Shown: positions 12,880 through 20,040 of the stretch, in pieces
How positions within the stretch are numbered: the first letter of the stretch is position 1
How the letters are laid out: every line of letters starts with the position of its first letter
Assembly (NCBI GenBank): GCA_002360635.1
Contig: DEQW01000003.1
Location: 370,552-434,551, forward strand
From: Flavobacteriaceae bacterium UBA3356
GTDB lineage: Bacteria; Bacteroidota; Bacteroidia; Flavobacteriales; Flavobacteriaceae
Direction of reading: 5' to 3'
DNA length: 64,000 nt
Notes under the pieces: model-generated
Told to the model about the DNA's origin: nothing
Databases searched by the model: none
The model's input: the letters and a program-made list of their open reading frames with translations, nothing else
Program-made: the position numbers and the translations under genes

Positions 12880-13079
12880 TTACTTGCTATACGCATCACT
12901 ATGAACGTTTGCAACAGCCCGTCCACTAGGGTCGTTCATGTTTTTAAAACTTTCATCCCATTCTAACGCTGCAGGACTGCTACAGGCTACTGAAGGAACA
13001 GATGGCACACTCAACGCCGCCGTATCACTGGGGAAATGTTCAGTAAAAATAGAACGGTAATAAAACTCTTCTTTGCTGG
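12880..13079 (-). pseudogene. asnB: duplicated 3' fragment of asnB (ends ...AVANVHSDAYSK*)
   Basis: 12889-13079 matches 17581-17771 at 183/191 nt, in frame, with its own stop at 12880-12882. Confidence 0.92.
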
Positions 13080-17493: not shown

Positions 17494-17527
17494 AAAAACC
17501 CCAAAGACCTTTAAGATCTTTGAGGTT
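17494..17527 (-). terminator. intrinsic terminator after functional asnB
   Basis: AACCTCAAAGATC-TTAAA-GGTCTTTGGGGTT then U-rich on minus strand (G-U wobbles fit this strand). Confidence 0.65.
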
Positions 17528-17577
17528 CACATAAATTACCCGTTTATAAGAAGCGGTTTTGGAAATTGGCTTTAAAA

Positions 17578-19242
17578 CTAATACGCATCACTATGAACCT
17601 TTGCAACAGCCCGTCCACTAGGGTCGTTCATGTTTTTAAAACTTTCATCCCATTCTAACGCTGCAGGACTGCTACAAGCAACCGAAGGAACAGATGGCAC
17701 ACTCAACGCCGCCGTATCACTTGGAAAATGTTCAGTAAAAATAGAACGGTAGTAAAACTCTTCTTTACTGGTAGGGGTTTGTATAGGAAATTTAAAATGG
17801 GCGTTTTCCATTTGTTCATCACTTACTTTCTCGTTAACCATTTCTTTTAATGTGTCAATCCAGCTGTAGCCGACACCATCACTAAATTGCTCTTTTTGGC
17901 GCCAAGCAACGCTTTCGGGAAGCATATCTTCAAATGCTTTTCGTAGTACCCATTTTTCCATACGTTCGCCGTTTATCATTTTATCATCTGGGTTTAAGCG
18001 CATGGCTACATCCATAAACTCTTTATCTAAAAAAGGAACACGGCCTTCAATACCCCAAGCAGCTAAACTTTTGTTGGCTCGTAAGCAATCGTACTGGTGT
18101 AATTTATCCAATTTTCTAACGGTTTCTTTGTGCAACTCTTCTCCATTTGGTGCTTTGTGAAAGTATAAGTAGCCACCAAAAATTTCGTCGCTCCCTTCAC
18201 CACTTAAAACCATTTTTATTCCTAACGCTTTTATTGCACGAGCCATTAAAAACATAGGTGTAGAAGCGCGGATAGTAGTAATATCATAGGTTTCTAAATG
18301 GTAAATAACATCACGAATCGCATCAATCCCTTCTTGAATGGTAAATTTTATTTCGTGATGTACCGTATCTAAATGATCGGCTACTTTTTGAGCGGCAGCT
18401 AGATCTGGGCTTCCTTCCAGACCAATGGCAAAAGAATGTAACCTTGGGTACCAAGCATTTTCTTTGTCACCGGTTTCAATACGTTTGTCTGCATATTTTT
18501 TGGCAACAGCTGAGGTAATGGAAGAATCCAATCCACCGGAAAGTAAGACCCCGTATGGCACATCACTCATTAATTGACGATGCACAGCCGCATCTAAAGC
18601 ATTGCGCAACTCTTCAATGCTGGTTTCATTGTCTTTTACAGCGTCATATTCCATCCAATCGCGGGTGTACCATTTTTTTAATTCGCCTTCTTTACTGTAG
18701 AGGTAATGGCCAGGGGGGAAGAGTTCGATTTTGGTGCAAATACCTTCCAAAGCTTTTAATTCTGAAGCTACGTAAAAAGTTCCATTTTGATCCCAGCCCA
18801 TATACAGTGGAATGATTCCCATATGGTCGCGGGCGATTAAATATTCATCATTTTCAACATCATAAATGGCAAAGCCGAAGATTCCGTTTAATTCATCTAA
18901 AAAGTCGCCTCCTTTTTCTTTAAAGAGGGGTAAGATTACTTCGCAATCAGATTTTGTTTGAAATTCATACTTCCCTTCAAACTGCTTCCGTAATTCCAAA
19001 TGGTTATAAATTTCACCATTGGCAGCCAATACAAACTTCTTGTCTTTACTGAAAAGTGGCTGTTTTCCTGAAGTAGGATCTACAATTGCTAAACGCTCGT
19101 GGGCCATAATGGCTTTGTCGTTATCGAAAATTCCACTCCAATCCGGCCCCCGGTGACGGATACATTTACTCATTGACAATACCTGCAAGCGCAAGGCTTC
19201 TGCTGGCTCTTTTAGTTTAAAGGCACATACAATTCCACACAT
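17578..19242 (-). CDS. asnB: asparagine synthase B (glutamine-hydrolysing)
   Basis: N-terminal MCG nucleophile, RHRGPD, LSGGLDSS, SGEGSDE, EGRVPFLD. Confidence 0.97.
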   Translation of the reverse strand: MCGIVCAFKLKEPAEALRLQVLSMSKCIRHRGPDWSGIFDNDKAIMAHERLAIVDPTSGKQPLFSKDKKFVLAANGEIYNHLELRKQFEGKYEFQTKSDCEVILPLFKEKGGDFLDELNGIFGFAIYDVENDEYLIARDHMGIIPLYMGWDQNGTFYVASELKALEGICTKIELFPPGHYLYSKEGELKKWYTRDWMEYDAVKDNETSIEELRNALDAAVHRQLMSDVPYGVLLSGGLDSSITSAVAKKYADKRIETGDKENAWYPRLHSFAIGLEGSPDLAAAQKVADHLDTVHHEIKFTIQEGIDAIRDVIYHLETYDITTIRASTPMFLMARAIKALGIKMVLSGEGSDEIFGGYLYFHKAPNGEELHKETVRKLDKLHQYDCLRANKSLAAWGIEGRVPFLDKEFMDVAMRLNPDDKMINGERMEKWVLRKAFEDMLPESVAWRQKEQFSDGVGYSWIDTLKEMVNEKVSDEQMENAHFKFPIQTPTSKEEFYYRSIFTEHFPSDTAALSVPSVPSVACSSPAALEWDESFKNMNDPSGRAVAKVHSDAY

Positions 19243-19279
19243 AATTTCTATATTTTATTGGTTAGTAGTTTTAAAACAC

Positions 19280-19313
19280 AAAAAACCCGTCAAGTTAAAA
19301 AAACCTGACGGGC
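19280..19313 (-). terminator. attenuator terminator upstream of asnB
   Basis: RNA CCCGUCAGG-loop-CUUGACGGG followed by UUUUUU, about 38 nt before asnB ATG. Confidence 0.85.
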
Positions 19314-19335
19314 TATATATTGCGACAAGTTTTTG

Positions 19336-19386
19336 CTACGGCAACGGGTTATTATTATTGTTATTATTTAAGTTGAAAAGTAACAT
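19336..19386 (-). CDS. asnB leader peptide MLLFNLNNNNNNNPLP* (16 aa, 8 Asn)
   Basis: Hand translation from ATG 19386; seven consecutive Asn codons; directly precedes antiterminator/terminator pair. Confidence 0.85.
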   Translation of the reverse strand: MLLFNLNNNNNNNPLP

Positions 19387-19515
19387 ACTACTTGTTTTTG
19401 TCTTTTATGATTATTTGTAAATATTCAATAAAAAAATCGAGGATTCCAAATTTTAATCATCAATTATTTTGTTTTTTGCAATTAAAATCGATTTTAAGTG
19501 CTTTAAAATAAAGGC

Positions 19516-20040
19516 TTAACGATCGAATAAAATTATTTCGATTGGAAGGGCTTTTTCTGGAATTTCGTTTCCATTTATATCATAAAAAGCATGTTTTACA
19601 CTTGTATCTTTCCGAAGGTGTACACGATATATTTCTCTTTCAGGAAAATAAACTGTGATAAAATCGGCATACTTTACATCAAAATCTTTGTAATCAAATT
19701 GAAGTTTCAACCGGACTGTTTCAGGGATGGTTCCTGCTTCCATATATTCTGAATGAAATATCAATGTACCATCTGTTAGATACGAAGCTGAAGAACCGGG
19801 ATTTCCATCTTCTTCAAATTTTGAAATATACCGTACGGCTTTATCATCTGTGGCATCAAATCCTTTTTGAAGCTGCCATTCTGATATAAACCCACCCGGA
19901 AAAAGTGTGTCTTGGTTTGTTAGTACCGCTTGTGGAACTTCAGATTCAGCAATGGTTGGCTGAGATAAATTGACATCTTGGGCTTTCGTAAATAAAGGAA
20001 AAAAAAGTAATAATATAATTAGTAAAGTACTGTTTTTCAT
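19516..20040 (-). CDS. secreted hypothetical protein (PepSY-like/BLIP-like repeats plausible)
   Basis: Signal peptide; EVPQAV...FP and TIPETV...DY duplicated pattern; -7 TATATTTG at 20073-20080. Confidence 0.6.
   Translation of the reverse strand: MKNSTLLIILLLFFPLFTKAQDVNLSQPTIAESEVPQAVLTNQDTLFPGGFISEWQLQKGFDATDDKAVRYISKFEEDGNPGSSASYLTDGTLIFHSEYMEAGTIPETVRLKLQFDYKDFDVKYADFITVYFPEREIYRVHLRKDTSVKHAFYDINGNEIPEKALPIEIILFDR

Follow-up and report, generated by a model that had tools for sequence, protein, structure and literature searches.

The window is the whole stretch of DNA that was analyzed, 64,000 nt from the marine flavobacterium Flavobacteriaceae bacterium UBA3356, whose genome has a G+C content of 36%. 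On its minus strand lies asnB, which codes for a glutamine-hydrolysing asparagine synthase B and matches NF006949 over the full length of its ORF (19242-17578; 934 bits, cut-off 499). An upstream ORF ends with a stop codon at 19516, and a short Asn-rich ORF followed by a hairpin and a U-run is found between the two genes. The asnB ORF begins 38 nt past that U-run. The features of the region are as follows.

19447..19450, minus strand: putative −33 promoter element TTTG (within TTTGGAA), a consensus match; a TTTGGAAA-like element recurs at a matching position in many of 54 leaders
19418..19425, minus strand: putative −7 promoter box AATATTTA, a match to the Bacteroidota sigma-A consensus TAnnTTTG
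19390..19395, minus strand: candidate segment 1, ACAAGU, able to pair with ACUUGU of segment 2 and paired with 19331-19326 in the minimum free energy (MFE) fold
19336..19386, minus strand: leader ORF MLLFNLNNNNNNNPLP and stop, 16 codons plus TAG, read from the sequence
19348..19368, minus strand: run of seven Asn codons (AAT AAT AAC AAT AAT AAT AAC), the proposed sensing site, read from the sequence
19339..19350, minus strand: 3′ end of the leader ORF, AACCCGUUGCCG, possible outer strand of an extended antiterminator (constrained folds, shuffles)
19323..19333, minus strand: segment 2, AAAACUUGUCG, the 5′ strand of the putative antiterminator, with its core at 19333-19326 (conserved pairing)
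19300..19310, minus strand: segment 3, CGUCAGGUUUU, common to the antiterminator and the 5′ arm of the terminator (conserved pairing, folding)
19280..19314, minus strand: predicted intrinsic terminator, with the stem at 19314-19284, the loop at 19301-19297 and the U-tract at 19285-19280 (consensus scan, folding, covariation)
17578..19242, minus strand: asnB, 554 codons for asparagine synthase B (NF006949), the gene proposed to be regulated

The leader ORF (19386-19336, minus) reads ATG TTA CTT TTC AAC TTA AAT AAT AAC AAT AAT AAT AAC CCG TTG CCG TAG. Asparagine is specified by 8 of the 16 codons, 7 of them uninterrupted, and the eighth (19374-19372) lies outside the run. The sequence-only reading, which proposed an asparagine-sensing attenuator here, had described this minus-strand ORF with seven consecutive Asn residues and mixed AAT/AAC codons, and we recovered it unchanged. 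The stop codon is followed by C19335 and A19334, and then by segment 2 (19333-19323). No ORF of at least 60 codons overlapped the leader when both strands were checked. The whole 3.14-Mb genome has only eight ATG ORFs of 8-40 codons with at least four consecutive Asn codons, and among these eight a terminator-like hairpin lies 3′ of the asnB leader ORF only.

A separate consensus scan recovered the terminator placed between the leader ORF and asnB by the earlier reading: 13 pairs (6 of them G-C) between arms 19314-19302 and 19296-19284, a 5-nt loop and then a T-run. The hairpin folds at −19.4 to −19.8 kcal/mol, and the terminators of 17 leaders fold at −14.7 to −22.9 kcal/mol. The 158-nt leader as a whole folds at −35.8 kcal/mol (z = −4.4 relative to dinucleotide shuffles). 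The distance from the stop codon to the terminator is only ∼20 nt, and a 12-nt spacer is given between segment 2 and the terminator hairpin. In an alignment of 55 sequences fitted to a covariance model (alignment A3, 54 distinct rows), 96.9% of the terminator cells are paired, changes occur on both sides at 7 of 11 pairs, and the covariation score was matched by none of 500 shuffles; the covariation counts, for this hairpin and for the antiterminator alike, are drawn from related sequences, and a number of the changes probably arose once and were passed on within a clade.

Segments 2 and 3 pair at 10 of 11 positions, including one G-U, and segment 3 overlaps the 5′ arm of the terminator, as the earlier reading had it. 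Across the 54 sequences the antiterminator is an 8-bp core, (A/G)AAACUUG : CA(A/G)GUUU(U/C), which is paired in nearly all of them; two further pairs (C-G and G-C) are present in only about half. The outermost pair of the core (column 15:52) is A-U in 28 sequences, G-C in 18 and G-U in 5. Since its 3′ partner sits in the terminator loop, the terminator is unable to explain the co-variation at this position. The antiterminator covariation score was reached by none of 500 shuffles, and slid registers fall to 25-62% paired. The antiterminator had been left out of the covariance model, and thus the alignment is unbiased towards it. When the nascent RNA from the stop codon to the terminator loop was folded, the 2:3 hairpin was formed in 17 of 17 leaders, with energies of −4.4 to −11.0 kcal/mol. 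Folding of alternative structures, a check set beforehand, yielded mutually exclusive 2:3 and terminator hairpins in masked and constrained folds.

A search of the interval 18800-19900 against Rfam 15 (4227 models) at E ≤ 10 returned five chance-level matches (IR_84, L20_leader and others), all far below the gathering scores, and the leader thus belongs to no curated RNA family. A T-box leader was considered and rejected: there is no T-box match at E ≤ 10 and only ∼20 nt separate the stop from the terminator. A riboswitch or a protein-binding aptamer was rejected on the same short distance from the stop codon to the terminator.

The asnB loci of 80 species genomes, nearly all from Flavobacteriaceae, were confirmed by tblastn; a clear poly-Asn uORF lies upstream of asnB in 15 of them and a weaker one in 2. 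We built a covariance model (R1) on the region from the last ORF codons to the U-run and applied it to 401 sampled Flavobacteriaceae genomes. Scores were bimodal: 43 genomes from ∼32 genera, our own included, gave exactly one match of at least 52 bits, and everything else fell below 50 bits. All 43 strong matches have an Asn-rich uORF ending at the 5′ edge of the model and asnB ∼80-350 nt downstream, so that the poly-Asn uORFs which the earlier reading proposed to look for upstream of asnB in related genomes are present in 43 of 401 Flavobacteriaceae. Seven weaker matches (below 50 bits) were examined, and neither an Asn-rich uORF nor asnB accompanied any of them. Whenever a carrier genus had been sampled twice, the element was found in both genomes; Aequorivita, Mesonia and Luteirhabdus are among the carriers. 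In a second sample of 401 genomes across the order, R1 gave no strong match outside Flavobacteriaceae. On this sampling the element is a lineage-specific invention, carried by about a tenth of the sampled Flavobacteriaceae species.

The leader ORF is present in all 54 distinct homologues, with an ATG start in 53 and GTG in one. The peptides have 11-19 residues, 4-10 of which are Asn, and are poorly conserved outside the Asn run and the last residue. The three codons between the run and the stop vary widely (PLP, GNP, ELP, QFP, GTP, AKT, ART, RMP and others), but 50 of 54 leaders have exactly three of them. Every leader ends in TAA or TAG with a C after it (54/54), and in 48 leaders the stop and AACUUG are 4 nt apart. 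L006 and L120 have a tail of only two codons and 7 nt beyond the stop, so that segment 2 keeps its distance from the Asn run. Because the sequence drifts while frame and length are held, selection appears to act on translation and geometry. We infer translation of the leader ORF from this comparative evidence.

Promoter-like elements precede the ORF. At ∼25-30 nt before the leader ATG there is a conserved [G/A]ATATTT[G/A] box, with TTTGGAA ∼21 nt further upstream, and both recur across the leaders. In the window transcription is predicted to start near 19413. A study of Flavobacterium psychrophilum gives TTTG and TAnnTTTG, the latter at −12 to −5, as the Bacteroidota sigma-A consensus (PMC9723704). 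Most of the leader-less asnB relatives (L010-L080) have a −7 box of the TAnnTTTG type (GATATTTG, CATCTTTG and similar) 25-30 nt before the asnB ATG, and with it a short 5′ untranslated region. Since the leader-less loci have the same kind of −7 box directly before asnB, the leader-terminator module appears to have been inserted between the promoter of asnB and its ORF in one sublineage. The genes upstream of the leader form at least two unrelated clusters (29 and 18 loci) plus singletons. Since these genes differ between loci, the terminator would not be the end of a particular upstream gene, and the element travels with asnB.

These observations bear on the simplest alternative, namely that the hairpin is an ordinary terminator of the upstream gene, constitutive or controlled by a protein or a small RNA, and that the Asn ORF is functionless low-complexity, AT-rich sequence. 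AAT repeats arise easily in a genome with 36% G+C, and the terminator is strong by itself. However, in the window it lies ∼200 nt beyond the stop of the upstream ORF (19516), after the conserved promoter-like box; among the loci the upstream gene varies and the element stays with asnB; start codon, Asn enrichment, tail length and stop context are kept across 54 leaders despite the divergence of the tail codons; and the antiterminator covaries. We consider an ordinary terminator highly improbable.

The positions of ORF, segment 2 and terminator were then compared with the space occupied by a ribosome. Toeprints and footprints from E. coli indicate that the ribosome shields ∼12-13 nt on the 3′ side of the first base in the A site; these E. 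coli values set the footprint limits used here for a Bacteroidota host. Counted from the last Asn codon (first base), segment 2 starts at +17 nt; counted from the stop codon, its core occupies positions +5 to +12. By these values a ribosome decoding any of the Asn codons would reach no further than 19338, and segment 2, which begins at 19333, would stay exposed. If UAG occupied the A site instead, the footprint would cover 19333-19326 exactly. Masked folds gave the corresponding structures. Placing the A site at either end of the Asn run (first or last codon) gave the 2:3 hairpin in the nascent RNA. Placing it on the stop codon left segment 3 unpaired with segment 2 and gave the terminator in the complete RNA. 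When the RNA was folded with no ribosome, ACAAGU (19395-19390) paired with ACUUGU of segment 2 and the terminator was formed.

At equilibrium the terminator is favored in the window (−23.8 kcal/mol, against −19.9 kcal/mol for the antiterminated form and −7.3 kcal/mol for 2:3 alone), so antitermination would have to be kinetic. In the trp system the terminator is likewise the more stable structure and the switch is kinetic.

The data are consistent with the following sequence of events. The sigma-A-type promoter (−33 TTTG, −7 AATATTTA) would start a transcript ∼27 nt before the 16-codon leader ORF. When Asn-tRNA is plentiful, the ribosome would reach UAG and its footprint would cover segment 2 (19333-19326). 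Segment 3 would then pair with segment 4, and the polymerase would be released at the U-tract (19285-19280), short of asnB. Under a shortage of Asn-tRNA, the ribosome would stall on an Asn codon (19374-19372 or 19368-19348), with segment 2 outside the ribosome. Free segment 2 would capture newly made segment 3, thereby removing the 5′ arm of the terminator and allowing read-through into asnB. Upon a stall on the first few Asn codons, the 3′ end of the ORF could also pair with the 3′ arm of the terminator, giving a longer, nearly iso-energetic antiterminator. In an untranslated leader, segment 2 may be taken up by the conserved CAAG that precedes the start codon, which would make termination the default outcome.

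The genome provides the physiological setting for such a circuit. asnB is the single asparagine synthase above the cut-off in the genome, and asnA was absent when the genome was searched. With a single asnB and no asnA, the attenuator would govern the whole asparagine pathway. An asparaginyl-tRNA synthetase (asnS; TIGR00457, 597 bits) is encoded in the genome, and therefore the charging of tRNA-Asn would report free asparagine.

Five of six sequence-level features of a leader-peptide attenuator were found: a leader ORF, cognate codons, an intrinsic terminator, a mutually exclusive antiterminator and appropriate spacing. As a candidate for the sixth, a segment 1 or 1:2 pause hairpin that sets termination as the default, there is the conserved CAAG, with duplex energies not clearly better than those of shuffles. 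The trp/his-type ribosome-stalling architecture that the sequence-only reading had recognized in one locus is supported by 54 distinct leaders, in uORF, terminator, antiterminator, spacing and linkage to asnB. We therefore propose ribosome-mediated transcription attenuation of the leader-peptide type, in which transcription of asnB follows the supply of charged tRNA-Asn, and we put the probability of this reading at roughly 85%. We infer the response of asnB to asparagine, like the ribosome footprint sizes, from sequence and from E. coli values, respectively.

An attenuator of this architecture might read something other than free asparagine, such as general translation capacity or the decoding by tRNA-Asn (e.g., the queuosine status of its GUU anticodon at NAU vs. 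NAC codons). Every leader-peptide attenuator responds to the global speed of translation too. The 54 leaders contain 270 AAT and 99 AAC codons; the wobble-read AAT thus makes up 73% of leader Asn codons compared with 58% in the long ORFs of the genome, but this excess is modest and the comparison covers one genome only, and for these reasons we set the codon bias aside as the basis for a claim. In addition, the regulated gene is always asnB, the sole asparagine synthase, and with an asparaginyl-tRNA synthetase present charging tracks asparagine. A signal other than free asparagine is very unlikely in our view.

A function in trans, as for rnTrpL/peTrpL of Sinorhizobium, could instead be the main role of the element, exerted by its 16-residue peptide or by the short terminated RNA, with control of asnB in cis being secondary. 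Trans roles of an attenuator RNA and its peptide are documented (PMC7968998, PMC7298713), and the terminated RNA would be structured and ∼130 nt long. However, the peptide is poorly conserved outside the Asn run and last residue, no target suggests itself, and the element is found in one copy per genome, always before asnB. We regard a primarily trans-acting product as very unlikely, and cis control of asnB by ribosome stalling remains the preferred reading.

AACCCGU (19350-19344), near the end of the leader ORF, is complementary to ACGGGUU (19290-19284) in the 3′ arm of the terminator, a match noticed in the earlier reading that holds at the level of the sequence. In constrained folds, 19350-19342 is joined to 19292-19284. 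With 2:3 imposed, the last ∼12 nt of the ORF pair with the 3′ arm, giving the −19.9 kcal/mol structure compared with −23.8 kcal/mol for the terminated one. At least five outer pairs can be formed in 48 of 54 leaders, and in four leaders the extended antiterminator fold is the MFE structure. The duplex between ORF end and 3′ arm has a mean energy of −8.2 kcal/mol, compared with −5.1 kcal/mol for shuffles, and it beats 95% of shuffles in 22 of 54 leaders (sequence kinship uncontrolled). These results lend a measure of support to the pairing noticed in the earlier reading. The outer helix differs in sequence among clades: AACCCGU:ACGGGUU occurs in two registers, and leaders with the stem CCGCCAAG have CGCCAAG:CUUGGCG. 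An outer helix between the ORF 3′ end and the terminator 3′ arm is moderately supported by these folds, and it can form only if the ribosome is stalled early in the Asn run.

A CAAG motif at −8 to −6 of the start codon, complementary to CUUG of segment 2, is present in 35 of 54 leaders, compared with ∼5 expected within −16 to −1. For the duplex between segments 1 and 2, the fraction of shuffles with an energy at least as good ranges from 0.02 to 0.66. Since candidate segment 1 precedes the start codon, a ribosome stalled in the Asn run would leave it uncovered, unlike in the classical model. It may make termination the default of an untranslated leader, or it may be part of the initiation region.

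The last residue of the leader peptide is Pro in 39 and Thr in 15 of 54 leaders; with the stop codon and the C after it, this ending occupies 19335-19341 in the window. Both a C-terminal Pro and a C after the stop codon slow termination in E. coli. By analogy, the Pro/Thr-stop-C ending could keep the terminating ribosome positioned on segment 2. Another explanation would be that the CCG/CCU codon is retained for its pairing with the terminator 3′ arm.

A more specific reading, towards which we lean with only a little more confidence than doubt, is that this is the first asparagine-specific ribosome-mediated attenuator, and that it arose in a sublineage of marine Flavobacteriaceae by insertion of a leader ORF and terminator between a promoter and asnB, with a two-helix antiterminator (segment 2 taking the 5′ arm and the ORF end taking the 3′ arm) and a Pro/Thr-stop-C ending that holds the terminating ribosome.

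Other observations concern the surroundings of asnB. A 15-bp hairpin with a U-run, absent from a simple consensus terminator scan, lies at 17496-17528 (minus), ∼50 nt past the asnB stop; it is likely the asnB terminator, and asnB appears to be monocistronic. A 191-nt copy of the asnB 3′ end (17581-17771) is found at 12889-13079, 4.5 kb downstream of asnB, with differences at 8 of 191 positions, which suggests an insertion that duplicated its target at the 3′ end of asnB. Translation initiation in Bacteroidota is largely independent of Shine-Dalgarno (SD) pairing. A conserved ACUAACCAA box lies at 19258-19266 (minus), ∼15-25 nt upstream of the asnB start and between the attenuator terminator and asnB. 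A loose version of it is present in 12 of 17 leader-bearing loci vs. 5 of 62 leader-less loci, and the box may be part of an SD-independent initiation region. The absence of an SD is noted in PMC9723704.

Candidate leaders for other amino acids are encoded in the same genome, each with a strong terminator hairpin after it: MKQIALHHHIFSTLLRGNIGML (HHH) before hisG (C3:778768-778836, minus), MNANNKHTWWHMLHT (WW) before a trpE-family gene (C6:35899-35946, minus) and MYNTSLYWWHPYKL (YWW) before the gene for DAHP synthase (C5:165257-165301, minus). The Rfam model Bacteroid-trp (RF01692) had no match in this genome, so that the candidate before the trpE-family gene went undetected by it. Leader-peptide attenuation seems to be in general use in this lineage. 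A small ORF with a Leu run (C4:188038) was tried as a second leader and rejected: no gene lies downstream, and it is probably a gene C-terminus with its terminator.

Attenuation by leader peptides is a textbook mechanism, yet examples have been described for a limited number of amino acids only, namely Trp, His, Phe, Leu, Thr and Ile/Val, and recently Cys, Arg and a few others. Asparagine synthesis in well-studied bacteria is under the control of proteins (AsnC) or T-boxes. The earlier reading had noted that asparagine is not among the textbook attenuator amino acids and that prior reports should be checked. In the full-text literature we found no published asparagine-codon leader controlling asnB or any asparagine synthase, and no earlier description of the element; subscription journals lay mostly outside that search, and an older report is possible. 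The asnB leader is apparently an undescribed, asparagine-specific new member of the leader-peptide attenuator class. It would mean that the mechanism was invented again for a new amino acid, in Bacteroidota, where translation is initiated differently and few cis-regulatory RNAs have been characterized. If the proposal is correct, asparagine joins the amino acids sensed by leader peptides, in a phylum that initiates without SD pairing. The element would also provide (i) a compact (∼135-nt) candidate Asn-responsive switch; (ii) a comparative set of 54 variants with strict spacing rules for studies of the coupling of ribosome and RNA polymerase; and (iii) an annotation rule for an element missed by gene callers and by Rfam.

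The Asn-specific T-box leaders of Firmicutes (asnS/asnA) bind the tRNA directly through a structured RNA of 200-300 nt and need no translation. As is proposed for the asnB leader, they sense uncharged vs. charged tRNA-Asn and place a terminator before an asparagine-related gene; in contrast, the asnB leader has only ∼20 nt between the stop codon and the terminator.

Short uORFs rich in one amino acid, as in the asnB leader, are known elsewhere. The polycysteine leaderless uORFs of mycobacteria are proposed or shown to be sensors of Cys supply (bioRxiv 10.1101/834739). In Staphylococcus aureus the Arg-sensing rbfL acts on translation, and the Asn-rich sORF7 precedes a gene of unknown function, with no mechanism given (PMC13009471). 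None of the three controls asnB through a terminator/antiterminator pair.

Other leaders are known within the phylum. According to PMC9723704, leader-peptide attenuation has been reported for Flavobacterium psychrophilum, with ilvE and trp leaders, and asnB is listed there without a leader. Bacteroid-trp (RF01692) and the ilvE leader share with the asnB leader the phylum, the proposed mechanism and the order of TAnnTTTG promoter, leader ORF and terminator; the amino acids (Trp and Ile) and the sequences differ from those of the asnB leader.

The classical leader-peptide attenuators are those of enterobacterial amino-acid operons, trpL, hisL, pheL, thrL, leuL and ilvL. The asnB leader has in common with them a leader ORF with cognate codons, a terminator before the first structural gene, an antiterminator that shares a strand with the terminator, a terminator that is the more stable structure and, as proposed here, a choice of hairpin made by the ribosome position. 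In contrast to them, the asnB leader combines an amino acid and a gene outside the classical set with a Bacteroidota host and bears no sequence or Rfam relationship to them; its candidate segment 1 precedes the start codon instead of being part of the ORF, and the 3′ end of its ORF may pair with the 3′ arm of the terminator.
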